Both the position numbers and the translations under genes were made by a program. DNA of 64,000 bases. Origin: an uncultured Alphaproteobacteria bacterium. GTDB taxonomy: Bacteria; Pseudomonadota; Alphaproteobacteria; Methylaequorales; Methylaequoraceae. Positions 1 to 46,417 of the stretch are shown here, piece after piece. Position 1 is the stretch's first letter. Each line of letters opens with the position of its first letter. The notes under the pieces were generated by a model. That model saw only the letters and a program-made list of their open reading frames with translations, was not told the DNA's origin and made no database searches. The stretch lies in assembly GCA_902542925.1 (NCBI GenBank), contig CACBWF010000001.1, positions 41,569 through 105,568 on the forward strand, written 5' to 3'.

Positions 1-843
1 TGGTTTACAACCTCAGCTTCACTAAAAATGTCCTTTTATGGAAGTCAGTCAGTTAAAAATATTGAAAGTTTTAGTTTTACAAATAAAAAGATTCAAATAG
101 TTAAACCTACTAATGTTGATCAGTTACTTGAGGTTATTAAGATTTTGCAAAAAGCAAATCAAGAAAAAAGAGCTTATCCGTTTTTAAAAAAAGTTTTTGA
201 ATCATGTAATACAATTGAAGAAAAAAACTTCGTTATGGAATTTGCATCTAAATTTTCAGACAAAAATTTTGTTGTGAAATTGGCAAAATTAGAACCAAAA
301 ATATCAACATTTTTTTCGCATCCAACAATTATGGATTACATACCAGACAAATTTAGAAATAACAAAAAATATATTTCTTTGATTCATTCTATTATTTTGC
401 AAGAAAGTGCATTTAAAATTTCAGCTAGGAGTCATGCAGGAGCAAGAGGATTAATGCAACTTATGCCTTTTACTGCAAAAAGAGTTGCTAAATCTTTAAA
501 AATCAAATATTACAAAAAAGCATTAACGACAAATCCGCACTATAACATATTACTTGGAACAACTTATATCAGAAATTTACTTGAAAGATTTGACAATTCA
601 CTACCTCTGGCACTTGCAGGGTACAATGCTGGACCAGCAAGAGTAAAAATCTGGCTTAAAAGGTATGGTGATCCTAGAAAAGGAAAAATAAGTTATATAA
701 ATTGGATTGAATCTATACCAATTTATGAAACAAGAAATTATGTAAAAAGAGTAATTGGAAATTATAGTATATATTCAAGAAAATTTAATGCAGATAATTT
801 AACAGAAAATTTTAAATTGGCACAAATATTGAAGACATATTGA
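1..843 (+). CDS. Lytic murein transglycosylase, SLT catalytic domain; 5' partial (reading frame open to window edge)
   Basis: Frame 1 is open from nt 1. Contains the SLT signature ESAFKISARSHAGARGLMQLMP...AGYNAGPARV. Confidence 0.7.
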   Translation, partial: WFTTSASLKMSFYGSQSVKNIESFSFTNKKIQIVKPTNVDQLLEVIKILQKANQEKRAYPFLKKVFESCNTIEEKNFVMEFASKFSDKNFVVKLAKLEPKISTFFSHPTIMDYIPDKFRNNKKYISLIHSIILQESAFKISARSHAGARGLMQLMPFTAKRVAKSLKIKYYKKALTTNPHYNILLGTTYIRNLLERFDNSLPLALAGYNAGPARVKIWLKRYGDPRKGKISYINWIESIPIYETRNYVKRVIGNYSIYSRKFNADNLTENFKLAQILKTY

Positions 844-11919: not shown

Positions 11920-12231
11920 ATGGACAATGTAAATCATCTTGAAAAATTTAAATTACAGATAGAACTTGGTGATAATAACAAGAAATTAGCGGGAATACAG
12001 AATCTTGAGCAAGTTGCTCAAGAGTTTGAATCTTTGTTTGTCCATCAAATGTTAAAAAGTGCTAGGAATGCAAAACTTGCTGAATCAATATTCCACAATG
12101 ATGCTCAGGATACTTATCAAACTCTTTTAGATCAGGAGTATTCAAAATCACTTGCTAAAAATCATAATTTTGGAATTGCTGAATCACTTGTTAGACAGTT
12201 TGGCAATTATGTAAAAGGAACGGAAGATTAA
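11920..12231 (+). CDS. flgJ: Flagellar rod-binding protein (FlgJ N-terminal domain only, no muramidase domain)
   Basis: 103 aa. FESLFVHQMLKSARNAKLAESIF rod-binding motif. Sits between flgI and flgK. Confidence 0.65.
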   Translation: MDNVNHLEKFKLQIELGDNNKKLAGIQNLEQVAQEFESLFVHQMLKSARNAKLAESIFHNDAQDTYQTLLDQEYSKSLAKNHNFGIAESLVRQFGNYVKGTED

Positions 12232-15200
12232 TGCCAAGTTTATTTGACATCGGAAAAAGTGGATTACAAGCTTACAGGCAGTCACTTGCTGTTACTGGAC
12301 AAAATATAGCAAATGTAAACACCAAAGGGTATAAAAAAAGAGATGCCTCATTAGCAGAAGTTTCTGGTGCTGGTGGTGGCGTAACTGAAATATCTGATCA
12401 AACAGGTTTAGGTGTAAGAGTTGAACAAATCAGACGTTCGTTTGACGAATTTTTACTAGATAAATCAAGACAAGCAAGCGCATTATTTCAAAAGTCTGAT
12501 ACTTTTTTACAGGAAGTAAGAGATCTGGAAAATCTTTTGTTACCAGGCGATTCAAATTTAAGTTCTTCAATATCAAATTTTTTTAATGCTTTACAGGAAG
12601 TAGCTGCTGCGCCAGATGATCAGGCTCCAAGGATAGTTGCAAATGAACAAGGTAAAGATATGGCTGGTCAATTCAATCTTTATTCTGATAGAATAGATAA
12701 CTTGAAAGGTAGACTGAAAAGCCAAGCAAATAATGCAGTAACTTCAGTAAATTTATTGTTAACACAACTTTCAAGTATAAATGAAGATTTATTAACTTCT
12801 GGATTAACCTCTCAAACTTCAAATGCAAAACTTGATCAGAGAGACCTGTTAATTGATCAATTATCTGAAATATCTCAAATAACTGTAAATTACGGATCAA
12901 GAGGTGATGCTCTAATAAGATTGGGTAATACAGGATCTGGACCAATAATTCTCGAAAAAGATAAGATTAGTAAAATTGATGTTTTAGAACAGGGTGAAAG
13001 ATTACAACCCGTTGTTGGTCTAGGAAAAGTTGCAACAAATCAAATACAAGGTGGAATAATAAGTGGTTTAGCAGATGCTTATGCGCTTGTCGGCGATACT
13101 CAAAATGAAATTGATAACTTAGCAATAATTGTTGCTAAGAATTTTAATCAAATTAATAAAAATGGGCTTAATCTTGAAGGTAATATTGGCAAAAAAATGT
13201 TTTCGGTAACAAGTCTTGAAGCCATTGCAAACCCTACAAATAGAACAACAGTTGGAGCTGAAATAATTGTTGATGATCCAGAAATACTTAAAAGAGATAA
13301 TTATAGTCTGCAATATAGTAGTTCAAATAATTCATGGACATTAAATTCTTCATCATTAGATTCACCAATTGTTTCTAACACTTCTCAAATTGAAGGTCCT
13401 GGATTTAAAGTTTCAATATTTGGCTCTGCTATGGATGGAGACGAATTCAATTTAAAACCAGTAAATGAATCAAAAGGAATTCAATATCTTTTTACTAGAC
13501 CTCAAGATATTGCTGCTGCTGCCAAAATACTAATTAGCTCTGATACACAAAATTTGGGCAGTGCACAACTTCAAGAAATACCTTTAATAGCTTCAGTAGA
13601 TGATACAACTTTAGAAAATATTGAAAGTGTCTTTTCTAACAGTCTTCACCCAGTTACTTCAACTCAATTTTCTTCTGATGGAGGCGTTGCAATCATTCAG
13701 GAAGGAACGAGTAGTGTAAATTTAAGTTCGTACAAAGCCCAACCAACTGCAAAATTTGGTTTGTCTTCTTCAGATATAAGTAGTTTGACAAATATGACAT
13801 TGACCCTATCTGATTCAAGTACGGTTTCAGTTGATCTAACTGGACTATCCTCAATTCAAGAAGTAGCCCAGACTCTTAATAATGGTTTGGATGTAAATGG
13901 AAGCTCACACAATTTTAGAACGAAAGGATTATTCGCATCTGGCGGTGATTCATCTTTAACAATTGCAAGTAATAATCTAACTTTCAATTCAGCAACACTA
14001 TCTACAGGAACTACTCTTAATGGAGTAATTAATAATCCTACAGTTACTGCTGCAAGTGATATTCAAATTTTTACAAGAGAGGGAAGACATTTATCTGGAA
14101 CAACTCTTTCTACATCAGAAATTGCTAAATACCTTACAAAAGAAAATGGTTTTAATATTTCAGCTGAGTATAGAGCAGACTATCTAAATGGTACAGGTTC
14201 AGAACAATATAGAGGAATTGAAATAGAACGCTCAACAACAGCAGGTAATCATACAGTTAGTTTGATGGCAAATGGTAGTAATAGTTTTAGTGCTCAACAG
14301 CATGCCAGCACATTGCCAGCTAGCAACGTAACATCAGCTTATACATTAAAAGTTACATCTGGAAGTAGTTCAAGTTCGGTTAATATAAGTGTGCCAGTTG
14401 AATCATCAGCGGGATATGTAGCAGGACTTATTAATACTCAAGCAAATAATTTAGGTGTTGAAGCTACTGCACTGACGAGAGTAAAAATTCCTGCACCAAG
14501 TTCAAATGGTACAATTTCTTTTTCTTTAAAAAGTAAAGCTGGAACAAATAGTACTGTATCAATAAGCGCTTCAGTGCTTTCAGATGATTTAACTAACTTA
14601 GCAACCGCTATAAATAACTTTTCTGGCAGGACTGGAGTAACAGCATATCTTTCTAATGATAAAAATCATGTAATTATGGAAAATACAGAGGGTGATGATA
14701 TAGAATTGACTTCATTTACGGCACCGGCTAATTTGACATTATCGCTCTTAAAATCAGACTTTTCATCAGCAGCAACATTAACAAATATGGGATCAACAAA
14801 TAAAGCTGCTCGATTTGGTGGAGAATTACAAATTGAATCATCTGGAACAATTACAACATCAAACGATGGTGGCTCAACAAATATCTCAAGTTCAGCAAAT
14901 GCTTTTAAAGATGGTTTTTTTAAAATTAGTTCTTCAACAACTGGTGAAACAAAAACTATAAAACCTGTCACTCTAGAAGGTGATATATCCGGTTCTCATC
15001 CAAGTGGAATTGATGCATCAAGTTCAGTTTTATCTTATGGGTTAACACTTCCTCAAACTGGAACAGGAACACAATTTACAACTTCATTTGATGCATCTAA
15101 ACTTGAAAGTGTCTCTGCTAACTCGGTAGCTAAATCACTCGCTGATGGGTTAAGATCTTCAAGCCCTTCAGTAGAAATTAGAGGGAATTCTATTAGTAGT

Positions 15201-17300
15201 TTACCAGCTGACGATTCGAGTTTTCAAATTAATCATGACGGTTTAACATATACTATAACTATGAAAAATGGCGAGGCAAGAATATCTGGGGGAGAAACAG
15301 ATATGGTTGATGCATATTTTGAAGATCCAAATGAAATAACAATAAATACTACTGGGTTTAATAGTACCTCAACAATAACTAGTACTGAACACGGATTAGA
15401 AACTGGTGATGCAATTATCTATAATGCTGCTGAAAAAGTCAAAGTGGATACAACAAATTTTACTTCAACTGTAAGTATTACAGCTGAAAGTCATGGGTTT
15501 ACAACTGGAGATCCTATTGTCTATAAAGCTGGTGGTAATCTTCCTATAAATGGCCTAACAGATGGAACTACTTACTTTGCAATTAGAGTCGACGCAGATA
15601 CATTTAAATTAGCTACCACGAGCTCAAATGCGTCAGGAGGAACAGCTATAACAATTACAGGGGGTTCTGGAGGAAGTGTTGAAGATACGTTTGCAAGTCC
15701 AATTACTGGTCTTACGGATGGAGAGACATATTTTGTAGTTAAAACTGATGATCACAACTTTAAATTAGCGCAAACATTAGCATTAGCAACAAATGCTTCT
15801 CCTTCTACTATTACTATTGCTGGGCAGACAGGAGGTAACGCATTGGACACTTTTGACCCAGGAAAAAGACTTTATCTTTCAGCAGGTAAAACAATTTCAG
15901 CATCACAATTTTCATTTGCAACTGATAGTGTAAATGATACTAATGCTACAGCTTTTGGAATGCTTGATTCCAACATTGAAACAACAATAACTGGTTCTTC
16001 AATCACAACTCCTGCAGCTAGTGATTCCACCCATTTTCATCTTCAACTTAATGAGTATGCAAATCCAATTGGAGTATTTGTTAGAGCTAATTCTAAAACG
16101 ATAAATACATCAACAGTCGGTGGTTCTTCAACTACACTTACATCAGCAGGTCATGGATTTAAAACTGGAGATAAAATTCTTTATACAGCAGCTGGAACTG
16201 CGATGTCCGGTCTATCAGGTGGAACTTCTTATTTTGCAAAAGTTGTAGATGCTAATACATTTAGCCTAGCATCAACTTTTGAAAATGCAACAGCTGATAC
16301 CCCTACCCTATTAAGTTTTGGAGGTGGTAATGGACATGCATCTGATACATTCGCTACCGTTTATGCTCAGGCTTACATTAGTGACAATTTATCAGCACCT
16401 GCAACAACTATTGGTATATCCGCAGAAATAAATCAAGTCAGTGATACAAATGCTCAAATTTCCATTATAAAAGAGGCAGATAAAAATAGTCTAATTGTTG
16501 ATACAATCACTGCAAGTGATGGAACAGCTGCAGAAAATTTTGGTTTTAAAACAAACCTAACCAGAGTCAATGTTTTAAATGATGAGATAAAAATTACATC
16601 AATTTCTACCGATCAAACTAATAGTAAGGCAATAAGTGTATCAGCTAATAATATGAGTTCGTTGGTAGGTAATAATTTGACAATAAATAATTTACCTCCT
16701 GAAGATCTAATTATTTTATCAACTGGTTCAGGTGCTAACAAAATAGCTGCGAGTTATGGTGAGAAAATACCTGTCATTGATAACTCTGAATTCAGATTTG
16801 TAATAGACTCAACCAATTCGAGTCAGGTTGAAATATTTGAAGCAGATACCTTACATTCAATTGCAACACGCCTTATTCCTACTGATGGGAAATTTAGTGC
16901 AATCGATAGATCCTTTGAAATTACAGGAGAAACAAAGGTCAAAGATATCTTTCATATTCAGAATAACAATGAAGGTGTTGGTGATAATAGGAATATTTTA
17001 CAGATGATAGCTCTTCAAGAATCAGATGTAAATGGACTTAATTCAGGAAGTTTTCAAGATATTTTTAATACCACCTTAACAGAAATTGGATCAACAGTAA
17101 GGTCTGCTGAAATGAATGCCAGTAATAATGAAGCTAGTAGAGATGAGGCAAAAGCTCTTGAAGATGAAAGATCTGGAGTTGAAATGGATGAAGAAGCAGC
17201 AGCTCTAATTCAATTTCAACAATCTTACTCAGCAAATGCGAGAATCATTCAAACAGCAAGAGAATTATTTGATTCTCTAATTCAAGTCATAAGATCATGA
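12231..17300 (+). CDS. flgK: Flagellar hook-associated protein 1 FlgK, giant variant with a ~1200-aa central insertion
   Basis: Canonical FlgK N-terminus MPSLFDIGKSGLQAYRQSLAVTGQNIANVNTKGYKKR. Canonical C-terminus EEAAALIQFQQSYSANARIIQTARELFDSLI. Single uninterrupted 1689-codon frame. Confidence 0.8.
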   Translation: MPSLFDIGKSGLQAYRQSLAVTGQNIANVNTKGYKKRDASLAEVSGAGGGVTEISDQTGLGVRVEQIRRSFDEFLLDKSRQASALFQKSDTFLQEVRDLENLLLPGDSNLSSSISNFFNALQEVAAAPDDQAPRIVANEQGKDMAGQFNLYSDRIDNLKGRLKSQANNAVTSVNLLLTQLSSINEDLLTSGLTSQTSNAKLDQRDLLIDQLSEISQITVNYGSRGDALIRLGNTGSGPIILEKDKISKIDVLEQGERLQPVVGLGKVATNQIQGGIISGLADAYALVGDTQNEIDNLAIIVAKNFNQINKNGLNLEGNIGKKMFSVTSLEAIANPTNRTTVGAEIIVDDPEILKRDNYSLQYSSSNNSWTLNSSSLDSPIVSNTSQIEGPGFKVSIFGSAMDGDEFNLKPVNESKGIQYLFTRPQDIAAAAKILISSDTQNLGSAQLQEIPLIASVDDTTLENIESVFSNSLHPVTSTQFSSDGGVAIIQEGTSSVNLSSYKAQPTAKFGLSSSDISSLTNMTLTLSDSSTVSVDLTGLSSIQEVAQTLNNGLDVNGSSHNFRTKGLFASGGDSSLTIASNNLTFNSATLSTGTTLNGVINNPTVTAASDIQIFTREGRHLSGTTLSTSEIAKYLTKENGFNISAEYRADYLNGTGSEQYRGIEIERSTTAGNHTVSLMANGSNSFSAQQHASTLPASNVTSAYTLKVTSGSSSSSVNISVPVESSAGYVAGLINTQANNLGVEATALTRVKIPAPSSNGTISFSLKSKAGTNSTVSISASVLSDDLTNLATAINNFSGRTGVTAYLSNDKNHVIMENTEGDDIELTSFTAPANLTLSLLKSDFSSAATLTNMGSTNKAARFGGELQIESSGTITTSNDGGSTNISSSANAFKDGFFKISSSTTGETKTIKPVTLEGDISGSHPSGIDASSSVLSYGLTLPQTGTGTQFTTSFDASKLESVSANSVAKSLADGLRSSSPSVEIRGNSISSLPADDSSFQINHDGLTYTITMKNGEARISGGETDMVDAYFEDPNEITINTTGFNSTSTITSTEHGLETGDAIIYNAAEKVKVDTTNFTSTVSITAESHGFTTGDPIVYKAGGNLPINGLTDGTTYFAIRVDADTFKLATTSSNASGGTAITITGGSGGSVEDTFASPITGLTDGETYFVVKTDDHNFKLAQTLALATNASPSTITIAGQTGGNALDTFDPGKRLYLSAGKTISASQFSFATDSVNDTNATAFGMLDSNIETTITGSSITTPAASDSTHFHLQLNEYANPIGVFVRANSKTINTSTVGGSSTTLTSAGHGFKTGDKILYTAAGTAMSGLSGGTSYFAKVVDANTFSLASTFENATADTPTLLSFGGGNGHASDTFATVYAQAYISDNLSAPATTIGISAEINQVSDTNAQISIIKEADKNSLIVDTITASDGTAAENFGFKTNLTRVNVLNDEIKITSISTDQTNSKAISVSANNMSSLVGNNLTINNLPPEDLIILSTGSGANKIAASYGEKIPVIDNSEFRFVIDSTNSSQVEIFEADTLHSIATRLIPTDGKFSAIDRSFEITGETKVKDIFHIQNNNEGVGDNRNILQMIALQESDVNGLNSGSFQDIFNTTLTEIGSTVRSAEMNASNNEASRDEAKALEDERSGVEMDEEAAALIQFQQSYSANARIIQTARELFDSLIQVIRS

Positions 17301-17348: not shown

Positions 17349-18629
17349 ATGAAAATAAGTAGCAAATTATTTAATGAACAGCAATTGAATCTTCTCTCAA
17401 AACAAATGGAGAATATTCAATCTGTTCAATCTAAAATTGCATCTGGAAAAAATATAGTTTTTGCATCAGATGACCCCGTTGGTGCTGTTGAATTATCTGG
17501 GTTAAAAGATATAAACAGTAAGGTAGGGCAATATATTAATAATGCAGAACTTTCTTTGAGTAGACTTCAGATGATGGATGATACTCTGGAAGCAGCAAAA
17601 AATGTTTTTATTAGGTGTAACGAATTAGCTATTCAGGCAGCAAATGATGTTCTTGCACCTAGTGATAGAGAGTCTATTGCATTAGAGTTTGATGAATTAA
17701 AAAAGGAATTACTTTCTCTTGCAAATACGACAGATAGTACTGGAGCACATTTATTTTCTGGATTTAAAACTAAAACAACACCATTTGTAATGGATTCTAC
17801 AGGCACTGTAACCTATGAAGGAGATAGAGGTGTAATTAGTTTAGCAGTTTCAGAAAGTAGAATGTTAGAATCAACTATTGATGGTGGTACTGTTTTTAGA
17901 GATATTGTTACAAGTGACGGTGTTTCAACAGATTTATTTGAAGCAGTTGATAACATAAGTAGATCTATTCGAACGGCCTCCTCTGGAGTTGAAGCAGCAA
18001 AAGCGCCAGGTATAGCAAAAATAAATCTTACAAATGAAGATCCTGGAACATATAGTTTCACAATTACTTCTGGAAGCAAATCTGCAGACTTCTCAATTGA
18101 TATAACTGGTGCCGATTTATCGGATTTACGTACAGCAATTAACGCTGCTGATCTAGATATTACAGCAACACTTGAGGATTCAAATACAACTCTCAAACTT
18201 ACTAATACATTTAGTCAAGACATAACAATGAGTAATGTTAAAATTCCTGGTATTACAAAAGCACAAGAACAACCAACGTCTTTTTTTACTTTTCAACCAG
18301 TAGATGCATCTGGTAACAGTCTTGGAAACTCTCAAACCCTTTATGACTTTGATCAAACAATTGCAAGTCGACTAGACGAAATGGTTACTATTCAAAATCA
18401 TTTAGCTAATCAAAGAGCAAAAGTAGGAGCTAGATTAAATTCAGCACAAAGACAAACTGATATTATGAGGGAACGTCAACAGTTAATTAACAAAGATATA
18501 AGTGAATTAGCAGATGCAGATTTAGCTGAACTCGTTACACAACTACAATCACAATTAACAAGTCAAGAAGCAACCCAAAAAGCATTTGTAAGAATTTCTC
18601 AGTTAAATCTTTTTGACCATATTGGTTAA
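17349..18629 (+). CDS. flgL: Flagellar hook-associated protein 3 FlgL
   Basis: Flagellin-like N-terminus SKIASGKNIVFASDDPVGA. Position directly after flgK. Confidence 0.8.
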   Translation: MKISSKLFNEQQLNLLSKQMENIQSVQSKIASGKNIVFASDDPVGAVELSGLKDINSKVGQYINNAELSLSRLQMMDDTLEAAKNVFIRCNELAIQAANDVLAPSDRESIALEFDELKKELLSLANTTDSTGAHLFSGFKTKTTPFVMDSTGTVTYEGDRGVISLAVSESRMLESTIDGGTVFRDIVTSDGVSTDLFEAVDNISRSIRTASSGVEAAKAPGIAKINLTNEDPGTYSFTITSGSKSADFSIDITGADLSDLRTAINAADLDITATLEDSNTTLKLTNTFSQDITMSNVKIPGITKAQEQPTSFFTFQPVDASGNSLGNSQTLYDFDQTIASRLDEMVTIQNHLANQRAKVGARLNSAQRQTDIMRERQQLINKDISELADADLAELVTQLQSQLTSQEATQKAFVRISQLNLFDHIG

Positions 18630-19126
18630 AGAAGATCCTCAATTCCAAAATCTTTTTTTATGAGAGGTTCAAAAAATTCAAGACCTTTTTCATTTTTTAA
18701 GCTCCATCCAGAGGGTGCTTTTGGAATTGAACCTGCTCTTAGAGCAAAGCAATAAGCTTTAAATTCCTTAAAAAACTTATCTTCACTAAACTTTTTTTCT
18801 TTTGTACCGTCAAAAGCACTTCCAAACAGACCTTTAAGCTTTCTTGGTCCTTTTATACCATCATGTTTAAGAATGTAATATATAAAATGATTAACTCGTT
18901 CATGTGCTTCAAACTGAGCTCCTTTTAATTCCGCCATAAATCGAATAGATTCCTCAGCAGGCTTTGTTAACTCCTCAGTTGGTATTTCAATATATTCCTC
19001 TGAAAGACCCTCAGCATATTTCTTCCCAACCATTTCCAAGGAATATTGCTTGGTTAAAAAATCGTACATAACACATCCAACAGCTAAATCATACAAAAAG
19101 TGAGGACAATAAAGTTTTTCGCTCAT
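18626..19126 (-). CDS. Hypothetical protein encoded on the opposite strand between flgL and the flagellin genes
   Basis: 166 aa; no family recognised by eye. Confidence 0.4.
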   Translation of the reverse strand: MSEKLYCPHFLYDLAVGCVMYDFLTKQYSLEMVGKKYAEGLSEEYIEIPTEELTKPAEESIRFMAELKGAQFEAHERVNHFIYYILKHDGIKGPRKLKGLFGSAFDGTKEKKFSEDKFFKEFKAYCFALRAGSIPKAPSGWSLKNEKGLEFFEPLIKKDFGIEDLL

Positions 19127-19299: not shown

Positions 19300-20088
19300 A
19301 TGCCTTCAGTCTCGAATTTAGCCGTTGGTGCTGCAATGGCTGGTGCCGCTGCCTCTAAGGCTCGTCATCAAATGAACGAATCAATTGCAAGATTGTCAAC
19401 TGGTATTAGATCCATGTATGGTGGTGATGCTGCTGGTCAATCAATTGCAAACATGATTGGTGCCAAGGGTAAAAGTTTTGCTGTTGCTTCAAGAAATCTT
19501 GAAGACGGTATTTCTTACCTTCAAGCTGCTGAAAGTGTCCTCTTGGAAATGGCTGCACTAGCAACTAGATTGAGAGAACTTGGAACGCAGTACAATAATG
19601 TCGCTCTTATGACATCATTTGATCAAGTAGCTTTGAATAATGAAGCTGCAGCGATTGGTGATACAATGGATGCGATCCAAACAAATATGAAATTTAATGG
19701 AGTCTTCCTTGTTGGTGCGAGTCATAAATTTCAAATCGGTATTAATGATGCTAGTAGTACGTTAACCATAGGTGTAAACCAAACTATTGGTGTTCTAAAT
19801 ACTATAACTGGTGCTAACGGAGCTGATGCTTCTGCTGACACAGTTATTGGTCACATTGCGAAAGCACTTGGTAATGTTGCTGCCGGTATGGCTGGCTTAA
19901 AGGGTGCTCAAGCTGTTGCTGCTAACTCAGCTGCAAATTTAAATGCTGCTGCTGCAAGAATTCAGGATACTGATTACGCTCTTGAAACTGCTGCATTGAC
20001 AAAAGCTGCAATCTTAAACCAATCTGCGATGGCGATGGTAGCTCAAGCTAATGATGCGCAACAATCAATATTAACCGTTATACAATAA
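19300..20088 (+). CDS. Flagellin (short, divergent, 262 aa)
   Basis: N-terminus ESIARLSTGIRSMYGGDAAGQSIA. C-terminus ARIQDTDYALETAALTKAAILNQSAMAMVAQANDAQQSIL. RBS AGGAG. Confidence 0.8.
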   Translation: MPSVSNLAVGAAMAGAAASKARHQMNESIARLSTGIRSMYGGDAAGQSIANMIGAKGKSFAVASRNLEDGISYLQAAESVLLEMAALATRLRELGTQYNNVALMTSFDQVALNNEAAAIGDTMDAIQTNMKFNGVFLVGASHKFQIGINDASSTLTIGVNQTIGVLNTITGANGADASADTVIGHIAKALGNVAAGMAGLKGAQAVAANSAANLNAAAARIQDTDYALETAALTKAAILNQSAMAMVAQANDAQQSILTVIQ

Positions 20089-20108: not shown

Positions 20109-20894
20109 ATGCCTTCTGTTTCAAATATAGCCGTTGGTGGAGCTCTAGCATCCGCTGCTGCTGACAAAGCCAGACACGGAATGAATGAGAGTATTGCTCG
20201 TTTATCAACCGGCGTAAGGGCAATGTATGGTGGTGATGCTGCTGGTCATTCCGTCGGAACGGTTCTTGTAGCTAAAAGTAAGAGTTTTTCGCAAGCTGTA
20301 AGAAATATCGAAGATGGTATTTCAATGCTACAGCAAAGTGAATCTTTACTACTTGAAGTTGCAAACTTACTAACCAGAGGAAGAGAACTTGGTATTCAAG
20401 ATGATGGATTAACAAGTGCTTTGGGTGATGCTAACCAGATTGCAGCAGCGAATGCTGAGATTATAGTGATCACAGACACAGTTGATACATTGTTAGCACA
20501 GACCAAATTTAATGGTAAACTTCTGGAAACAGGCAACTTTGCAATTGGTGTAAACGACGCAAGTACTACACATAGTGCTGGTCCCAACAAAGATATTACC
20601 GCCGTTGATGATGCTGACGCAACAGGCTTCGAATCTCAAGCTGATGTTGGTTTGCAAGAAGTTGCTGCGGCGTTAGGTAACGTAGCTGCGGATCTTGTTT
20701 CTTTGAAAGCATTCCAAGCGGTTGCTGCTAACACATCAGCTAACATGGCTGCTGCTGCTGCACGTGTTATGGATACTGATTTTGCCAAAGAGACTGCTGA
20801 TTTGACAAAAAATAGTATTTTAAATCAGGCAGCACTATCTATGGCAGCTCAGGCAAACGACGCTCAATCTGCTATATTGGCTGTACTACAATAA
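20109..20894 (+). CDS. Flagellin (short, divergent, 261 aa; paralog of the preceding gene)
   Basis: Same D0/D1 architecture; tandem with a 20-nt spacer. Confidence 0.8.
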   Translation: MPSVSNIAVGGALASAAADKARHGMNESIARLSTGVRAMYGGDAAGHSVGTVLVAKSKSFSQAVRNIEDGISMLQQSESLLLEVANLLTRGRELGIQDDGLTSALGDANQIAAANAEIIVITDTVDTLLAQTKFNGKLLETGNFAIGVNDASTTHSAGPNKDITAVDDADATGFESQADVGLQEVAAALGNVAADLVSLKAFQAVAANTSANMAAAAARVMDTDFAKETADLTKNSILNQAALSMAAQANDAQSAILAVLQ

Positions 20895-21011: not shown

Positions 21012-22556
21012 ATGACAAAAATTAACACAACAATGGGGACAACAGGCGCGCTAAAAAGTCTCCTAAAAAATGAAAGAGAAATGCTTTCCGCAATGGAAAG
21101 AATTTCTTCAGGTAAAAGAATTAATCATGCAGGCGATGATGCTGCTGGTGCTGCTATTGCAGATAGAATGTCTGCTACTATTGGTGCATTAGATATGTCA
21201 ATTAGAAATGCATCTGATGTTTTATCAATGGCACAGGTTGCTGAAGGAGCGCTAGATGAAGCTTCTGCTGCATTACAAAGAATAAGAGAATTAGCAATTC
21301 AAGCTGCAACAGATATTATTAATGGTGAGCAAAAAGTTTATTTACAAACTGAAGTTGATCAATTACTTGATGAGATGGACCGTGTAACAAGAGATACAAC
21401 TTTTAATGAAATTGCTGTATTAGACGGAACTTTTGCAGACAGACGTTTTCAAATTGGTTCTCATGAAAGAGAAAAAGCAGTAATTTCTATTGCTAATATG
21501 AGAAATACTTCGATTGGTGCCTATCAAGCTACTACTGAAGGAACTAGTGGTCAAGCAAACCTAGCACAAAATGCTTTTCTTGCAGCGAGTAAATCAGCAG
21601 CAACTAGTAAAGTTACAACTTCCGATGCATTCACTATTACAGGTCTTTTAGGATCAAATGAATTAACACCAACGGCTGGTGAAACTGCAAAATCATTGAC
21701 TAACAGAATCAATGATTCTTTTGACAAAACAGGTGTTTCTGCAACGGCTTCTACTCAGGCTAGACTAAGAATGAAGACAAATTCAGCTGGTGATCACGTT
21801 GTTACCATGAAAGTTTATGGAAAAAACACAACAGCTCAGTCAATTTCTGCAACTGTAACTTTAACAACTGCATATACAGGAAATGATCTAACAGATCTTA
21901 GAGACCAGTTTAATTCTTTCAGTTCAGTAACAGGTATTACAGCGACTTTAAGTGCTGATAGTAACCAAATCGTTCTAGTACAAGATGAAGGTGAAGATAT
22001 TGTCATAGAAGATTTAGATTTTGCAAGTGTTACAGATGCAAATACATTAATGGAAGTAACAGGACTTAATTTTAAACAAGATACAACTGGAACATCAGTT
22101 GAAGTTCAGGATGCTAGCCAAACTAATGATAGTTTTAGATTAGGTGGAGAAATTACTTTCCATTCATCTCATACTTTTTCAATTGTTGGTAATGCAGATG
22201 GAGGATTATTTGAGTCGTCTGCAGCAACTTCAAGTTTAAATTCAGTTTCAACTATTGACATCAAAACAATGGCAGGTGCTGTTGATGCACTAAAGGTAGT
22301 TGACAGAGCATTAGATAGAGTTCACATGGAAAGAGCAAAATTTGGTGCCATTATGAGTAGAATGAATGTTGTTGTTGATAATTTAACTAATGTTTCTCAA
22401 AACCAAAGAGCTTCAAAAGCTAGAATTATGGATGCAAATTTCGCTTCAGAATCTTCAAGATTAGCGAAATCTCAAATTCTGCAGCAATCTGCATTAAATA
22501 TGATTGCCCAGGCTTCAAGAACAATGCAAAATGTATTAGTTTTATTCCAAGGATAA
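21012..22556 (+). CDS. Flagellin (canonical FliC/FlaA type, 514 aa)
   Basis: N-terminus ERISSGKRINHAGDDAAGAAIADRM. C-terminus KSQILQQSALNMIAQASRTMQNVLVLFQG. Confidence 0.9.
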   Translation: MTKINTTMGTTGALKSLLKNEREMLSAMERISSGKRINHAGDDAAGAAIADRMSATIGALDMSIRNASDVLSMAQVAEGALDEASAALQRIRELAIQAATDIINGEQKVYLQTEVDQLLDEMDRVTRDTTFNEIAVLDGTFADRRFQIGSHEREKAVISIANMRNTSIGAYQATTEGTSGQANLAQNAFLAASKSAATSKVTTSDAFTITGLLGSNELTPTAGETAKSLTNRINDSFDKTGVSATASTQARLRMKTNSAGDHVVTMKVYGKNTTAQSISATVTLTTAYTGNDLTDLRDQFNSFSSVTGITATLSADSNQIVLVQDEGEDIVIEDLDFASVTDANTLMEVTGLNFKQDTTGTSVEVQDASQTNDSFRLGGEITFHSSHTFSIVGNADGGLFESSAATSSLNSVSTIDIKTMAGAVDALKVVDRALDRVHMERAKFGAIMSRMNVVVDNLTNVSQNQRASKARIMDANFASESSRLAKSQILQQSALNMIAQASRTMQNVLVLFQG

Positions 22557-24284: not shown

Positions 24285-25037
24285 CTACCATCCCATTATT
24301 AGATTAATAATTTTTTCTCTTTTTTCTTCTAAAAACTTTGTCGGATTAATTGCTCTATCTTTTGAAAAATCTTTCATGATATCATTCTTTGTTTTTGAAA
24401 ATCCGGAATGTATACCTGCCTCATTTCTATCTCGTGCAAAGTGTTCTAAGAAAGAAGTGTTAGATTGGATGAAGGGAACTTTTAATTGGGCTGGCCAATA
24501 ATAATCAAATCCGTATATAGTTTCAAAAAATGGATTATGATTTAAAAAATTTACCATTATTTCAACCATATTTCTATCATAACATTGGCTTACTCCAGGA
24601 CATGTTTTTCTCAAACTAAAATCTTTATTTTGTTCAATAATATTTTCTGATTTATTATGAAATACACTATTAAACAGCCCGATTGGAAATTTTTTTTTTT
24701 GTTTTTTAGAAATATTATAAAAATATCTAAGTTGATTAAGAAACTGTGGATCATGAATAACATCATTATCAGTAATATAAAGCAAATCAAAGTTCTTATA
24801 TATATAACAAAAATCTCTAAAGCATCTTGCTCTTGATCTTTCTATCCCTCCCCTAACTCTGAATCTCAAAATATTTTGAGAATATTTTTTGAGAAATTTT
24901 TCATTATATTCTGTTGATGCATCATCATAAATTAATAATTGAGAATTTTTATCCAATAATTGGGTTAAATTCTCTAGACAAAGCTTGGTAATATTTTTTC
25001 TATTATACGTTGATAAAGCAACAAGAATTTTTTCCAT
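24285..25037 (-). CDS. Glycosyltransferase family 2-like protein
   Basis: VALSTYNR...YDDAST pattern typical of GT-A/GT2 enzymes. Confidence 0.55.
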   Translation of the reverse strand: MEKILVALSTYNRKNITKLCLENLTQLLDKNSQLLIYDDASTEYNEKFLKKYSQNILRFRVRGGIERSRARCFRDFCYIYKNFDLLYITDNDVIHDPQFLNQLRYFYNISKKQKKKFPIGLFNSVFHNKSENIIEQNKDFSLRKTCPGVSQCYDRNMVEIMVNFLNHNPFFETIYGFDYYWPAQLKVPFIQSNTSFLEHFARDRNEAGIHSGFSKTKNDIMKDFSKDRAINPTKFLEEKREKIINLIMGW

Positions 25038-25091: not shown

Positions 25092-25451
25092 TTGAATAAA
25101 GGTATAGTTATGGAAATTTTTACTGAAAAAATGGTTAACCAGATTAAGATTATCGAAAAACTTCTTAATCAGCTTGAAAAAGATCTTAACCATTTAAATA
25201 AACCAAGTAAACTAGACAACGTCTCAGAACTAGTTGAAAGAGTTGGTAAAATTACAACTGTTTTAAAAACTACTCTTGATTTAGAAAAGGGTGGCGACAT
25301 TGCAAAAAATTTACTTCATCTTTATAATCACATTCAATATGCTGCTCAAAGAATCAAAGAACACGAAGATTATTCAGCAGTCAAGAGTGCTCATAAAGTA
25401 GTAAAAGAAATTAATGAAGGATGGTCTAAGCTTTCAACTGCTGCTGCTTAG
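25092..25451 (+). CDS. fliS: Flagellin-specific chaperone FliS
   Basis: LDLEKGGDIAKNLLHLYNHIQYAAQRIKEHEDYSAVKSAHKVVKEINEGW matches the FliS core. Confidence 0.8.
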   Translation: MNKGIVMEIFTEKMVNQIKIIEKLLNQLEKDLNHLNKPSKLDNVSELVERVGKITTVLKTTLDLEKGGDIAKNLLHLYNHIQYAAQRIKEHEDYSAVKSAHKVVKEINEGWSKLSTAAA

Positions 25452-27031
25452 CTTAAAAATTTTTTTACTTCATTATTTATATGTGACCAATCATTGAATT
25501 TTGATTGTCTAACCATTTTTACAGACTTATACCATGGGGTTTTGGAATCTTTCAAACCCCATCTCCAATCTGGTACTTTTGGAAGTAGTAATAATGTTTT
25601 CTGTCCAAGAGTGCCAGCTAAATGAACTAATGACGTATCTATTGTAATCACCTTATCCATTAAACTTAAAACCAAGGCTGTTTGCGAAAAGTCTTCAAGC
25701 TTATTATCAAGGACTTCTACATTTGAAAATTTTTTTAAAAATTTATGTTCCTCATTTGAAACACCTTTTTGTAATACAAAAAATTTACAATCATTATTTT
25801 TGAATATTTCTGAAAATTTTTCGATATGAATTGATCTATTTAGGTGCCTTTTATGTAGAGGGTTCCCAGACCATGAAACTCCAATATTCAATTTACTTTT
25901 ATCAATCCTTTTAGTTAAAAACTTATTAAAATTTACATTAAAACTCTTAAGCCTTTCGACATCAACAATAAGTGGATCAATAATTTTTTTGCTATTTTCC
26001 CAAAATAGATAGGGTAAGCTCATCATAAATATTCGATAGTCAAATGAAGTTTCATCAACATCATCAAATTTGTCTGAAATATTTACACTATCCAGTTCTG
26101 GACAAGATTTAAAAAAATTAATTGTCGATTTGTGTGCAGCAAAACTTACTTTATAATTTTTCTCAAGAAATGATTTTAAGAATCTTGATGCCATAAAATC
26201 GTCGCCATAGCCTTGTTCGCGATGTATTACAATTTTTAGATTTTTTTCTTTAAGATTCTTTTTAGTAAGTTCTGGATATCCATCTCCACCATATTTTACT
26301 AAAAATTTTTCTTTATCTCTATGTTTTTCGTATAATTCAAGGCCTTTATTATAATTACCTTGCAACAATTCAAGTAGAGATAAGTTGAAATTAGCAAAAA
26401 AATTATCTTCTTTTTCTAATGTTTTTTTATAAAATTCTTTTGCTTTTTTAAATTGAGATGTTTCAAAGAAATAAACACCTAAGCCTAAGTGAGCTAGAGC
26501 ATTTTCTTTATCTAAATGCATACAAGTAATAAAACATTCTTTAGCCATTTCAGGTTCTTGTGTTGCAATATAGGCTATACCTAATTGGGCCCAATTGTTT
26601 GGCATTTGTGGTAATTTATGTACACAGTCTGATAAAATATCTTTAGCTTTATACACATCTGCATAATCATGCATTAACATACATGCATAATCAAATGCAA
26701 TCATGTAGCATTCTGGACAATATTGATAACCTTTTTCTAAGATTAAAAATCGTTCTTCTTTCATTTTTTCATGTTCGTAAATCATAGAAAGTTGTAAATA
26801 AGCTTCTTCAAACGATTTGTCATTTTCTAATATTTTCTTAAGTTTTTCTATTGCATCATCATAATTACAAAATTCAATATCATCTAATGCTAAGACGTAA
26901 TTAGCATATGAACTATCCTTTTTTTTATTCAGAATTTCTTCAGCTAGATCTCTTGCTTTTGTAAGATGATTTGTGGAGTCCGGATTCGATATAAATTCTT
27001 TTAAGTTATTTTCTAAGGTTTCAAGATTCAT
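25448..27031 (-). CDS. TPR-repeat protein with C-terminal GT9-like (heptosyltransferase-fold) glycosyltransferase domain; FlmG-like flagellin glycosyltransferase candidate
   Basis: N-terminal TPR repeats. C-terminus NIGVSWSGNPLHKRHL...ITIDTSLVHLAGTLGQKTLLLLPKVPDWRWG resembles the GT9 DSGxxHLAxALG region. Confidence 0.55.
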   Translation of the reverse strand: MNLETLENNLKEFISNPDSTNHLTKARDLAEEILNKKKDSSYANYVLALDDIEFCNYDDAIEKLKKILENDKSFEEAYLQLSMIYEHEKMKEERFLILEKGYQYCPECYMIAFDYACMLMHDYADVYKAKDILSDCVHKLPQMPNNWAQLGIAYIATQEPEMAKECFITCMHLDKENALAHLGLGVYFFETSQFKKAKEFYKKTLEKEDNFFANFNLSLLELLQGNYNKGLELYEKHRDKEKFLVKYGGDGYPELTKKNLKEKNLKIVIHREQGYGDDFMASRFLKSFLEKNYKVSFAAHKSTINFFKSCPELDSVNISDKFDDVDETSFDYRIFMMSLPYLFWENSKKIIDPLIVDVERLKSFNVNFNKFLTKRIDKSKLNIGVSWSGNPLHKRHLNRSIHIEKFSEIFKNNDCKFFVLQKGVSNEEHKFLKKFSNVEVLDNKLEDFSQTALVLSLMDKVITIDTSLVHLAGTLGQKTLLLLPKVPDWRWGLKDSKTPWYKSVKMVRQSKFNDWSHINNEVKKFLS

Positions 27032-27139: not shown

Positions 27140-28042
27140 ATGATAAGTGTAATAATACCAACATATAATGGCATAGAAAAAGGGCTTGAAAGGTCGATAA
27201 GATCTGTATTAATGCTAAAAAACATAGATGAAGTTATTATAGGAATTGATGGTTCTGATGATACAAGTAATGAATTATGTAATGAACTACAAAAAAAAGA
27301 TAAAAGAATAAAGTACTTTGAAAATAAAAAAAATATTGGATGGGGAAAAACAGCTGCCATTTGTATATCAAAGGTAGGATGTAATCGAACTATAATTCAT
27401 AGTGATGATGATTGGATGCTTCCAGAAATGAATAATCTCATTGAATTTTCTTTAAAAAATAATTTAGATCTAGCATATAGTAAGTATGCTATTGGGAATG
27501 ATCAGACAAAAAAGATCAATATTTTTAGTAATCCTACATGGGAAAAAAAAAATTATATTGGTGAAAAAGATGAGTTTCATGAACTTTTATTACATGACTG
27601 TTATATCGGAAGATCTATAATAAAAACCGAAATTTACAAAAACACTTTTAATCTTAAAGCATTAGAAAACTTAAATAGAGAATTTGGAGAAGAATTTACA
27701 GCAATCGACTATAATTTATTTTTAGACTTATCTTCACAAGATTCTAAATTTGGGTATTTAAACCAAATTACAAATATATGGACCCAACGTGCAAACCAAG
27801 AAACTGGAATGTTTTATAATACCTCGGGAAAACATTTAGGCGAATCTTCTTATCTTTTTAATAAATATTACGATGAAAAAAAACACAGGAAAGATTGGGA
27901 TTTTTTAGGAAGTGTATTTAATCGAGTTAAATATTTATATACGTTTGCAAAAAAAAAAAATAAAAAAATTAATCCGATTTATGAAAATCATTTTAAAGTA
28001 TTTTCAAAAAAAATTAGTTCTTTAAGAGGTTCAAATGTTTAA
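27140..28042 (+). CDS. Glycosyltransferase family 2
   Basis: N-terminus MISVIIPTYNG...IIGIDGSDD. Confidence 0.6.
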   Translation: MISVIIPTYNGIEKGLERSIRSVLMLKNIDEVIIGIDGSDDTSNELCNELQKKDKRIKYFENKKNIGWGKTAAICISKVGCNRTIIHSDDDWMLPEMNNLIEFSLKNNLDLAYSKYAIGNDQTKKINIFSNPTWEKKNYIGEKDEFHELLLHDCYIGRSIIKTEIYKNTFNLKALENLNREFGEEFTAIDYNLFLDLSSQDSKFGYLNQITNIWTQRANQETGMFYNTSGKHLGESSYLFNKYYDEKKHRKDWDFLGSVFNRVKYLYTFAKKKNKKINPIYENHFKVFSKKISSLRGSNV

Positions 28043-29114
28043 AAAAAATTGTCATTTACTTATTACAGGTGGTACAGGGTCATTTGGAAAAGCAATGTTA
28101 GAAAAAATATTATTCAACAAAAATATTTCAAAAATTTCAATACTTAGTAGAGATGAAAAAAAACAAGATGATTTGAGAAAACAATTTAATAACAAAAAGT
28201 TAAATTTTATTTTATGTGACATAAGAGACAGAGAAAATGTTTTTTCTTCAATAAATGATGTTGATTATATTTTTCATGCGGCTGCTTTAAAGCAAGTACC
28301 AAGTTGTGAATTTAATCCAATGGAAGCAGTAAAAACAAACATTTTAGGTGCATTAAATGTAATAGACGCTTCAATAAGAAATAATGTAAAAAAAATTGTG
28401 CTATTAAGTACAGATAAAGCTGCCTATCCAATTAACACTCTAGGGTGTAGTAAAATGTTAATGGAAAAAATTATGTTTGCTAAAACCACAGAAAAGTCAA
28501 AAAACTCAAAAACAATCATTTGTGCAATTAGATATGGAAATGTGCTCTTTTCAAGAGGTTCTGTTGTTCCACTTTTTTTAAAACAACTTAGTGACAATAA
28601 ACCATTAACGATTACAAATCCAAGTATGACAAGATTTTTAATTTCACTATCAGAAGCAATAGATTTGGTTTTATATGCTCTATCACATGGTAAAAATGGT
28701 GATTTATTCATCAGAAAATCAAAAGCCGCTACAATTTTAAATATAGCTAAAGCATGTAGTTTAATGTTTAACAAAGAGTTGAATATAAATTACATAGGAA
28801 TAAGGGAAGGTGAAAAAATGGATGAAACACTTGCAACTAGAGAAGAAGTTGCTAAGTCAGAAGATAGAAATACTTATTTAAGAATACCTCATGAACAATC
28901 TAAAAATTTTAATAAATATTTTACGGAAGGAACTATAACTAAAGAAATTTTTCCATTCACATCTAAAAATACAAAACAACTTTCAATCGAAGAAATTATA
29001 GGTATATTTAAGGCAATTCCTGAAATACAACAAATTTTAAATGTAAATAAACATATGATAAATCTTCCAGTGAATGTAAGCGAAAGTTTTACTAATTCGC
29101 TCCTTATCAATTAG
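28035..29114 (+). CDS. UDP-GlcNAc 4,6-dehydratase of the PseB/LegB/CapD (FlaA1) family
   Basis: N-terminus LLITGGTGSFGK; polysaccharide-biosynthesis SDR family. Confidence 0.7.
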   Translation: MFKKNCHLLITGGTGSFGKAMLEKILFNKNISKISILSRDEKKQDDLRKQFNNKKLNFILCDIRDRENVFSSINDVDYIFHAAALKQVPSCEFNPMEAVKTNILGALNVIDASIRNNVKKIVLLSTDKAAYPINTLGCSKMLMEKIMFAKTTEKSKNSKTIICAIRYGNVLFSRGSVVPLFLKQLSDNKPLTITNPSMTRFLISLSEAIDLVLYALSHGKNGDLFIRKSKAATILNIAKACSLMFNKELNINYIGIREGEKMDETLATREEVAKSEDRNTYLRIPHEQSKNFNKYFTEGTITKEIFPFTSKNTKQLSIEEIIGIFKAIPEIQQILNVNKHMINLPVNVSESFTNSLLIN

Positions 29115-29874
29115 TATTTAATACATCTCCGGGAGATAGGTATTTTTTTTCTTTAGATTTTAAATAATAAGCTTGTTCATAAGGTGGAAAATAACATGCC
29201 CTTACAATTCTATCAATTTTCTTACAATTCCATTTTGGATCAATAATTCTAAGTTTTTCAATTGAATCTTTACTATAAAATTTACCCTGTTTTTTAATTT
29301 TCTTTTTCGGAATGTTATTTTTAATAATTGCTAAAAAAAGTTTTATCAAAATTTCTTCTGCGCATTTTAAAGATTTTTTGTATAAACTTTTAGCGGTTTC
29401 AGATTTACTAATTTTAGTTGAAGATTCAAAAGCTATATCTCCCTCATCAACTTGCTCTGAAACCCAATGAATTGTTGAAGTATACTTTTTATCATTATTT
29501 GCTATCGCAAAATTAATGGAATTATAGCCTTTATAATTTGGAAGTTTTGCATTGTGAAGATTTAGGCATTTATTACCAACTAGTTCTAATATTTTATTTG
29601 ATAAAATCCATTTATGCTGGATTGAAATTAAATAATCTGGAGATAAACTTTTAATTTTTAATGAGATGAGTTTTTCGTTACGTTTTTCATTAGATATAAA
29701 AAAAGTATTTTTAAGGGTATTATTTTTTAAAAATTTTTTTTTTACTTTTGAGTTATAGAAATTTTTATTAGATACAAATCCCAATATCTCTATTTCTTTT
29801 TTAAAATATTTTTTGATTATTCTTAGAGCTATCTCAGTTGTTTTTTTATCGCCAAGTAAGATTATTTTTTTCAT
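29107..29874 (-). CDS. Sugar N-formyltransferase (formyl_trans_N family)
   Basis: Motif NLHNAKLPNYKG corresponds to the HxSLLPxxxG formyltransferase signature. Confidence 0.6.
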   Translation of the reverse strand: MKKIILLGDKKTTEIALRIIKKYFKKEIEILGFVSNKNFYNSKVKKKFLKNNTLKNTFFISNEKRNEKLISLKIKSLSPDYLISIQHKWILSNKILELVGNKCLNLHNAKLPNYKGYNSINFAIANNDKKYTSTIHWVSEQVDEGDIAFESSTKISKSETAKSLYKKSLKCAEEILIKLFLAIIKNNIPKKKIKKQGKFYSKDSIEKLRIIDPKWNCKKIDRIVRACYFPPYEQAYYLKSKEKKYLSPGDVLNTN

Positions 29875-29880
29875 AGGAAA

Positions 29881-30294: not shown

Positions 30295-30299
30295 TTTTT

Positions 30300-46410: not shown

Positions 46411-46417
46411 ATATACT

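Follow-up and report, generated by a model that had tools for sequence, protein, structure and literature searches.

FlgK, also called hook-associated protein (HAP) 1, passes through the flagellar type III system in an unfolded state; its D0 and D1 domains form the core and D2 faces outward. In Salmonella and Campylobacter the hook-filament junction is known to consist of one turn of 11 FlgK subunits followed by 11 FlgL subunits, and it cushions the filament against mechanical stress that arises as the hook flexes (PMC12221982). The FlgK proteins of Burkholderia (4ut1) and Campylobacter (9gsx, PMC5691160) already carry an added outer domain, D3. A much larger FlgK has been described in Rhodobacter sphaeroides, where FlgK1 has 1,363 amino acids (aa) and a non-conserved centre of 860 aa that contains internal repeats and three or more Flagellin_IN motifs (PMC7277832). 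Its HAP region is bulky by electron microscopy, and with 100-aa deletions in the centre flagella were assembled and swimming was slowed or abolished (PMC7277832). In this paper we describe a giant FlgK encoded in a 64,000-nucleotide stretch of contig CACBWF010000001.1 from an uncultured alphaproteobacterium. We refer to this whole stretch as the window, and the coordinates of all its features are given in table 1.

The identity and architecture of this protein are close to certain. The flgK reading frame is single and uninterrupted, and its product passes the cutoff of the NCBIfam FlgK equivalog TIGR02492 (246.1 bits vs a cutoff of 170.75). Pfam families are matched at both ends, namely PF00460 Flg_bb_rod, the rod-family D0 motif, at aa 6-35, PF22638 FlgK_D1 at aa 98-324 (E 8.4e-44) and PF06429 Flg_bbr_C at aa 1646-1685 (E 4.3e-11). 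The NCBI name of MDC3176197.1, which falls in the same cluster at 90%, is 'flagellar hook-associated protein FlgK'. Going by these sequence matches, the 1,689-aa protein is FlgK. The start ATG shares one base with the flgJ stop (TAATG) and has an AGGA 12 nucleotides (nt) upstream, and we regard this start as credible because the N terminus of the protein aligns with Salmonella FlgK from residue 1.

A sequence search of the PDB matched four FlgK structures of 463-673 residues. In Salmonella FlgK (9go6, 553 aa), residues 1-444 correspond to residues 1-437 of the window protein and residues 446-552 correspond to residues 1579-1686. By this alignment the whole canonical FlgK is present and all extra mass is found at one point, where D2 leads into the C-terminal return of D1. 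A first-pass annotation, made from the letters of the DNA, had called a giant FlgK of 1689 aa at 12231-17300, and the reading frame, the Pfam ends and TIGR02492 agree with this. It had described canonical ends around one uninterrupted insert, which our alignment bears out, but its sizes for these ends of ~330 and 130 aa, roughly correct, were too narrow and become ~437 and ~111 aa. The insert is large as it had said, but instead of ~1200 residues at 13.2-16.9 kb we obtain ~1,140 aa at 13542-16964. The expectation that such an insert would be exposed at the surface is supported.

The insert is rich in Ser, Thr, Gly and Asn, which was also seen in the first-pass annotation. These four residues make up 43.6% of the insert, compared to 31.6% of the core and 27% of the other window proteins (S 14.6, T 12.7, A 8.9, G 8.3 and N 7.5% in the insert). 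The same annotation took the insert to be low-complexity, and here our results differ. Measured over stretches of 40 aa, the Shannon entropy ranges from 3.25 to 3.95 bits for the insert and from 3.3 to 3.9 bits for the ends, the hydrophobic fraction is ~35% in the insert and in the conserved ends alike, and the longest run of Ser and Thr is 5 residues. The predicted structure furthermore shows confidently folded domains and not filler. We used AlphaFold2 with the family alignment on two overlapping segments. Segment A (aa 320-1020) has a mean predicted local distance difference test score (pLDDT) of 77.9 and a predicted template modelling score (pTM) of 0.62, with most blocks at 80-95, and segment B (aa 900-1600) has a mean pLDDT of 82.5 and a pTM of 0.71, with half of its residues at or above 90. 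Both segments are dense in beta strands with some helix. The only long low-confidence stretch, at aa ~422-484, is a probable linker in the model.

The first half of the insert, and only this half, resembles the outer domains of flagellins in its predicted fold. Foldseek matched segment A to D2/D3 of Pseudomonas aeruginosa FliC (8erm_A, E 4.7e-9, TM score 0.69 on the target) and also to Helicobacter pylori and Campylobacter jejuni flagellins and to FliD D2-D3. Besides 8erm_A, the solved flagellin D2/D3 domains that were matched include 9ygu, 9yh1 and 6x80. Pfam searches, run separately on six sub-segments of the insert, yielded Flagellin_IN, a weak D2-like match of the FlgK type and, beyond these, only noise below threshold (E1_FCCH, E 0.1). 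On the sub-segment aa 601-830 the Flagellin hook IN family PF07196 reaches an E-value of 8.5e-10 in two stretches. No match to the PHROG phage protein families was found for aa 438-1030.

The insert is conserved. Among 38 non-redundant relatives its identity to the window protein is 50-65%, and that of D0/D1 is 55-87%. The ratio of non-synonymous to synonymous substitution rates (dN/dS, Nei-Gojobori), calculated against an orthologue from a metagenome-assembled genome (MAG), is 0.233 for the insert, 0.197 for the N-terminal core and 0.151 for the C-terminal core; dS is ~1.2 and near saturation, which makes these ratios rough, while the comparison between regions is still valid. The most constrained part of the insert, with a dN/dS of 0.174, is the region of the repeated module described below. 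In our models and alignments the insert is thus a chain of conserved, confidently folded beta-rich domains under purifying selection.

The second half of the insert contains a beta-barrel module of ~80 aa. A self-BLASTP of FlgK listed no internal repeats. The repeats came to light only when the family alignment was cut into 80-aa slices and profile hidden Markov models (HMMs) were made from these, and they are confined to aa ~1034-1400. The module has the invariant signature H-G-F-x-T-x-D...Y...G-L...Y...F...A...G...G...D-x-F, which can also be written as HGFxTGD...GLxxGxxYF...FxLA...GGxGGxxDxF. Two full copies, numbered 2 and 3 in table 1, are 46% identical to each other. When aa 1070-1156 are removed in silico, two partial matches join into one full module of 88 bits. 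This fusion leads us to count three copies, with copy 2 inserted in a loop of copy 1.

The module is not limited to FlgK and has no Pfam family of its own. Among 1.84 billion representative proteins we found 8,722 carriers at E <= 0.001 and 1,892 at E <= 1e-10. Many of them are 1,000-8,000 aa long and some contain up to 27 copies. We scanned ten carriers with Pfam, from a set of module-carrying proteins labelled P0121-P0269. Four of the ten are flagellins, two of which show both flagellin termini (P0125, 1,133 aa with 10 copies, and P0127, 961 aa with 7 copies) and two the C-terminal domain only (P0167 and P0181). One is the FliD cap protein P0160 (832 aa, 4 copies) and one is the rod/hook-family protein P0128 (970 aa). 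The last four have no flagellar domain and give only weak signals to E1_FCCH, endosialidase-beta-barrel, Cpn10 or tail-sheath domains. When aa 1031-1400 of FlgK were compared with PHROGs, they matched phrog_2885, a baseplate wedge subunit (E 1.4e-22), and phrog_38233, a tail fiber protein (E 1.3e-18), and the non-flagellar carriers match both families more strongly than FlgK does. A search of the module profile against PDB sequences gave nothing significant, the best hit being an F5/8 type C protein at E 0.025. The module is a promiscuous surface beta-barrel that is common to all exposed axial proteins of the flagellum (flagellin, FliD, FlgK), to phage tails and to giant unannotated proteins.

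Giant FlgK proteins of this kind are found in many independent sequences. To find relatives in genomes we scanned one genome per species. The single-cell genome (SAG) AG-896-A16, from an uncultured member of the Alphaproteobacteria, contains an intact 1,689-aa reading frame that is 99% identical over residues 1-1689. At the nucleotide level it is 98.6% identical to the window gene. The two differ at 70 nt, which change 56 codons synonymously and 13 non-synonymously, and they represent separate, independent sequences of one gene that is under selection. The two 'Rickettsiales bacterium' MAGs MED723 and SAT45, from the Mediterranean and the South Atlantic, have intact reading frames of 1,780 aa, and the gene order around flgK is identical in the SAG and both MAGs. 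In a collection of 5.8 billion proteins from NCBI, ENA, JGI, Logan and Tara we found more than 100 clusters of full-length relatives with 1,415-2,030 aa. The comparison with FlgK lengths in related genomes that was proposed with the first annotation shows the giant size to be conserved. Their identity to the window protein varies with length and is 54-84% at 1,685-1,805 aa, ~42% at 1,989-2,030 aa and ~38% at 1,415-1,560 aa. Members of the cluster of the window protein are found on many contigs of up to ~1.55 Mb, and contigs of this length suggest a small genome.

The number of module copies follows the length of the protein. Relatives of 1,415-1,560 aa have no copy; they have the distal part of the insert (aa 1383-1578) in common with the window protein. 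Three copies, the nested pair and one more, are found at 1,688-1,689 aa. Proteins of 1,774-1,802 aa have four, with an additional complete copy at aa ~840-930, and those of 1,989-2,027 aa have 4-5 diverged copies. The additional copy in the 1,774-1,802-aa class falls exactly at the ~90 extra residues of the pairwise alignments, and the nested arrangement is kept throughout the 1,688-1,802-aa group. Judged from these sequences, gain and loss of modules explains the FlgK length classes.

The flagellar operons of relatives also show large hook proteins. In two further single-cell genomes the gene order is flgE-flgF-flgG-flgH-flgI-flgJ-flgK-flgL-flagellins. One of them (locus L004) combines a FlgK of 2,027 aa with a giant FlgE of 1,433 aa, and the other (L005) a FlgK of 1,553 aa with a giant FlgE of 1,291 aa. 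In these sister lineages the giant FlgE stands at the head of the flagellar operon (L004 1-2184, L005 1-2228). Marine data commonly include FlgE proteins of 1,244-1,273 aa, and some of these bear the label Puniceispirillaceae, Rhodobacteraceae or Alphaproteobacteria. We considered whether hook and junction share one outer layer made of the same domains, and rejected this idea, as the giant FlgE of the relatives has neither the FlgK module nor BLAST similarity to the FlgK insert.

What could such an insert be for? We favour, with moderate confidence, the view that the protein is a functional hook-filament junction FlgK of an uncultured low-GC marine alphaproteobacterium and acts as a mechanical collar that tunes or stabilises the junction under load. 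Taken separately, the mechanical role of the insert is about evenly balanced in our estimate. By analogy with known systems, FlgK would be exported unfolded by the type III system and placed in one turn of 11 subunits. The inserts would depart from the D2-D1 connection and would for this reason project radially. Eleven inserts of ~118 kDa each, ~1.3 MDa together, would then form a bulky collar at the hook-filament junction, similar to the HAP region of R. sphaeroides. Most likely such a collar would stiffen or buffer the junction under load, with the effect that the filament keeps its working shape. In the sister lineages the collar may continue an enlarged hook, because giant FlgE genes are found in the same operon there. 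We regard a structural collar as the best explanation because of the R. sphaeroides analogy and the purifying selection observed here.

There are several points that weigh against a mechanical collar. It is from the analogy with R. sphaeroides that we derive the collar, along with its size and the mechanical function proposed for it. The domain-domain orientations in AlphaFold models are unreliable, so the shape of a collar would not be given by our models. Of the five flagellins encoded in the window, four are minimal, with 258-262 aa and no outer domains, and it is not obvious that mechanics would call for so large a junction on a thin filament. The module is common with phage tail fibres and is endosialidase-beta-barrel-like, and a binding role fits this as well as a structural one. 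Lastly, neither sequence nor module connects the giant FlgE of the relatives to the FlgK insert, and the organism's own flgE lies beyond the window.

The main rival explanation sees the collar chiefly as a means of binding. It would serve as an adhesin or a sensor at the filament base and would use its phage-tail-type modules on polysaccharide or particle surfaces. We consider this unlikely, while giving it more weight than any other alternative. It would account for the matches of the module to phage tail-fibre and baseplate families, for its occurrence in giant unannotated proteins, which reach ~8,000 aa and contain as many as 27 copies, and for the weak Pfam matches of carriers to the endosialidase beta-barrel. 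Module copy number also varies between close lineages, which is expected of parts that face a host or the environment. The low dN/dS of the module, the lowest in the insert, is however unlike that of diversifying receptor-binding tips, and no ligand-binding site was identified in the module. Only 11 copies at a fast-rotating junction near the cell would be awkward for adhesion, and the relatives of 1,415-1,560 aa have no module and are still giant.

A related and slightly less probable possibility is an 'armoured' junction in a clade of marine alphaproteobacteria that are abundant and apparently have small genomes, in which a ~1.3-MDa collar of flagellin-type domains and phage-tail-type modules would do more than mechanics. 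Such a collar might anchor to or sense particles or polysaccharides, and it might shield the junction or act as a decoy against flagellotropic phages that have the same tail-fibre module. Gain, loss and nesting of modules could then be an evolutionary dial. The giant hook protein of 1,250-1,430 aa that sister lineages also possess would belong to the context of this reading.

It is quite improbable that the insert is largely neutral baggage, meaning mobile surface domains that expanded selfishly or by drift, are tolerated at a permissive site and serve no function of their own. The module is promiscuous across protein families and variable in copy number, and flagellin outer domains are often dispensable for motility (PMC8931119). 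Against neutrality, the insert is under purifying selection to the same degree as the core, and it has persisted over deep divergence, down to 35% identity. A 3.4-kb insert is also kept in what, from the ~1.55-Mb contigs, is apparently a small genome. Comparable deletions in R. sphaeroides harm swimming (PMC7277832).

Another question is whether the insert is glycosylated; the first-pass annotation had called it, for its Ser/Thr richness, a plausible substrate of the adjacent flagellin O-glycosylation machinery. Sugar-nucleotide genes are found 7-35 kb downstream of flgK, with a flagellin gene and two further FliS genes among them. Further downstream genes include a GT25, a sulfotransferase and methyltransferases. 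The WecB-type epimerase passes its NCBIfam cutoff, and the FnlA/PseB-like and PseC/LegC-like proteins stay below theirs. Neither Maf nor a NeuB/PseI/LegI nonulosonic-acid synthase was found among the window open reading frames (ORFs) scanned. The gene content suggests that the donor sugar would be an N-formylated or N-acylated deoxy-amino-hexose rather than pseudaminic or legionaminic acid. The two tetratricopeptide repeat (TPR) proteins are 30% identical over their C-terminal ~360 residues and have the motifs EQGxGD and D-x-x-x-x-H-x-A-G-x-L-G in common. Their C-terminal half matched no family model and no PDB sequence, and in a PDB search with a TPR protein only the TPR regions were matched, including those of the eukaryotic O-GlcNAc transferase (OGT). 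The C-terminal domain may contain a GT9-like motif. With an N-terminal TPR region and a C-terminal domain of ~300 aa they are similar, by layout alone, to FlmG, the 596-aa flagellin O-glycosyltransferase of Caulobacter, which consists of TPR and GT-B (PMC7591256). From these genes a flagellin glycosylation island in the window is plausible, and no observation connects it with FlgK.

The reading to be weighed here is that of a disordered, mucin-like Ser/Thr brush with the main purpose of carrying O-glycans from these neighbouring genes, and we find it a little more improbable even than neutral baggage. The insert has 317 Ser and Thr residues (27.8%), and sugar-nucleotide, GT2 and two FlmG-like-layout TPR genes lie downstream among flagellin and FliS genes, with FlmG itself as the precedent. 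However, the insert is neither disordered nor low-complexity, and it is conserved at core-like levels. A similar Ser and Thr content is found in the centre of the long flagellin (28.0%), the centre of FlgL (26.7%) and FliD (24.9%), with 14.0% in the window proteins overall. Because of this similarity, the bias is generic to exposed flagellar domains here and is no specific pointer to FlgK glycosylation. The lack of Maf and of NeuB/PseI/LegI-type synthases among the window ORFs scanned also speaks against a brush, and no example of a glycosylated FlgK was found in the literature searched. Glycosylation of folded insert domains is possible as an add-on to the collar model.

The weakest alternative, in which FlgK ends were joined around unrelated sequence by a sequencing error or by an assembly that is chimeric or collapsed, has in its favour only the unusual length and the origin of the relatives in MAGs and SAGs, and it is practically ruled out, as is the misassembly or frameshift that the first annotation had wanted checked, by the intact frames in the independent SAG (with mostly synonymous differences) and in two MAGs with identical synteny, by the cluster members across many contigs and the more than 100 clusters of full-length relatives, and by the finding of Tandem Repeats Finder that the insert has no DNA tandem repeats (the sole array, of 9 bp with score 36, is in the N-terminal core), which leaves nothing there to collapse.

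The gene neighbourhood of flgK is that of a flagellar operon. The gene order is flgG-flgH-flgI-flgJ-flgK-flgL, with translational coupling at the flgJ-flgK overlap, followed by three flagellin genes and fliD, and the adjacency of flgK and flgL in a flagellar operon is also kept in five loci of relatives (L001-L005). Upstream of flgG the window has a transporter gene, not flgE or flgF. Promoter and terminator scans of 9.0-19.4 kb gave results at or below shuffle expectation, with no sign of a transcription unit inside flgK. FlgJ is short and lacks a muramidase domain, and a separate gene for a lytic transglycosylase with an SLT domain is found 11 kb upstream; this pair may resemble the FlgJ/SltF division of labour known in R. 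sphaeroides. Between flgL and the first flagellin gene there is a 166-aa ORF on the minus strand without Pfam or NCBIfam match. In L004 a 177-aa minus-strand gene, with no Pfam match, is likewise found between flagellin genes. The 166-aa ORF may be an unrecognised flagellar regulator or chaperone. The flagellin genes include minimal forms that consist of D0/D1 only and one 514-aa flagellin with a Ser/Thr-rich centre, and there are three separate genes for the FliS chaperone. The filament would be thin and built from several flagellins, beside a huge junction protein.

Table 1. Positions of flgK, of the parts of its product and of other genes in the window
Feature	Position	Strand	Size or residues	Basis and remarks
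flgK, giant hook-associated protein 1	12231..17300	+	1,689 aa, 177 kDa	No Cys; stop included
Canonical N-terminal part	12231..13541	+	aa 1-437	Pfam; Salmonella FlgK 1-444 alignment
Canonical D2 beta domain	within 12231..13541	+	aa ~328-412	Foldseek: FlgK D2 of 2d4y over 89 residues; weak PF21158 D2-like match
Low-confidence stretch at D2/insert boundary	13494..13682	+	aa ~422-484	pLDDT <50 at segment A model residues 103-138 and 144-165
Insert	13542..16964	+	aa 438-1578, ~1,140 aa, 118 kDa	Flanked by Salmonella residues 444 and 446
Insert, first half	13683..15320	+	aa ~485-1030	Beta-rich and alpha/beta domains, flagellin-outer-domain-like; AlphaFold2 segment A, Foldseek
Flagellin hook IN motif	14517..14678	+	aa 763-816	PF07196, E 5.5e-5 on whole protein
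Module copy 1, N-terminal third	15357..15434	+	aa 1043-1068	Profile 2-27; hmmsearch profile A3, E 7.6e-9
Module copy 2, complete, nested in copy 1	15456..15704	+	aa 1076-1158	Profile 1-83; 122 bits
Module copy 1, C-terminal two thirds	15696..15857	+	aa 1156-1209	Profile 28-80; E 1.1e-16
Module copy 3, complete	16122..16376	+	aa 1298-1382	Profile 3-87; 126 bits; AlphaFold2 pLDDT above 90
Insert, distal part	16377..16964	+	aa 1383-1578	Beta domains, some low-confidence loops near D1 return; AlphaFold2 segment B
Canonical C-terminal part	16965..17297	+	aa 1579-1689	D1/D0 helices, Flg_bbr_C; Salmonella FlgK 446-552 alignment; Pfam
flgJ, short form	11920..12231	+	103 aa	PF10135, rod-binding domain only; stop overlaps flgK start
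flgL (HAP3), FlgK partner in junction	17349..18629	+	426 aa, normal size	TIGR02550, 223 bits, above cutoff
Lytic transglycosylase, SLT domain	28-843			
ORF between flgL and first flagellin gene	18626-19126	-	166 aa	
Minimal flagellin genes	19300-20088, 20109-20894, 32672-33448		258-262 aa	
Long flagellin	21012-22556		514 aa	
FliS chaperone genes	25092-25451, 33509-33940, 36022-36462			
Glycosyltransferase family 2 (GT2)	24285-25037	-		Near FliS gene
TPR protein	25448-27031	-	527 aa	N-terminal TPR, conserved ~300-aa C-terminal domain; second GT2 nearby
TPR protein	37644-39344	+	566 aa	Paralogue of 527-aa TPR protein
Sugar-nucleotide set 1	27140-32560			FnlA/PseB-like dehydratase, formyltransferase, FdtA-like cupin, WecB-type UDP-GlcNAc 2-epimerase, DegT aminotransferase
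Sugar-nucleotide set 2	44384-47509			Nucleotidyltransferase, DegT aminotransferase, 4,6-dehydratase

No other part of the external flagellum has been studied as little as the hook-filament junction, whose first native structures appeared only in 2025. The giant FlgK family occurs widely in ocean metagenomes. Its organisms apparently economise on DNA in other respects, so the function carried by the junction seems to be worth ~3.4 kb of coding sequence to them. With 0, 3, 4 or 4-5 modules, and with or without a giant hook protein nearby, the members of the family form a natural series in which the role of a bulky junction can be studied. The module itself can be a lead for annotation and for the study of module exchange between phages and flagella.

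In the literature searched we found no description of the single insertion point or of the two-part composition of flagellin-type domains and a nested phage-tail-type module, none of a relation between module copy number and FlgK length or of the co-occurrence of giant FlgE in sister lineages, and nothing specific on giant hook or junction proteins in SAR116 and relatives. With phage tail-fibre and baseplate-wedge families the window FlgK has the module alone in common, while FlgK itself is a flagellar axial protein. The similarity of the module to the E1 FCCH and End_beta_barrel folds is sub-threshold and at the fold level only. Giant flagellins of more than 1,000 aa in marine gamma-proteobacteria (PMC6248924, PMC11532411, PMC8931119) have the same helical core with beta-rich surface domains inserted in the middle. 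Those flagellins are present in thousands of copies and thicken the whole filament, whereas 11 FlgK subunits would make a local collar. Compared to the canonical FlgK of Salmonella (553 aa, 9go6/2d4y), the window protein has the same D0/D1/D2 core and the same flgJ-flgK-flgL context, but it is three times longer, with all of the extra sequence between Salmonella residues 444 and 446.

The comparison with FlgK1 of R. sphaeroides shows that the novelty implied in the first-pass annotation was overstated, as a 1,363-aa FlgK with a bulky HAP region was already known (PMC7277832). Both proteins have conserved termini, one huge centre, Flagellin_IN motifs and internal repeats. The window FlgK is bigger, with 1,689 aa and an insert of ~1,140 aa against a centre of 860 aa, and its relatives reach 2,030 aa. 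It comes from uncultured low-GC marine alphaproteobacteria, and it contains the phage-tail-like beta-barrel module in copies that are both nested and in tandem. A giant FlgK with a large folded centre is already known, and the window FlgK is a new and larger example from a different, uncultured and environmentally abundant group.

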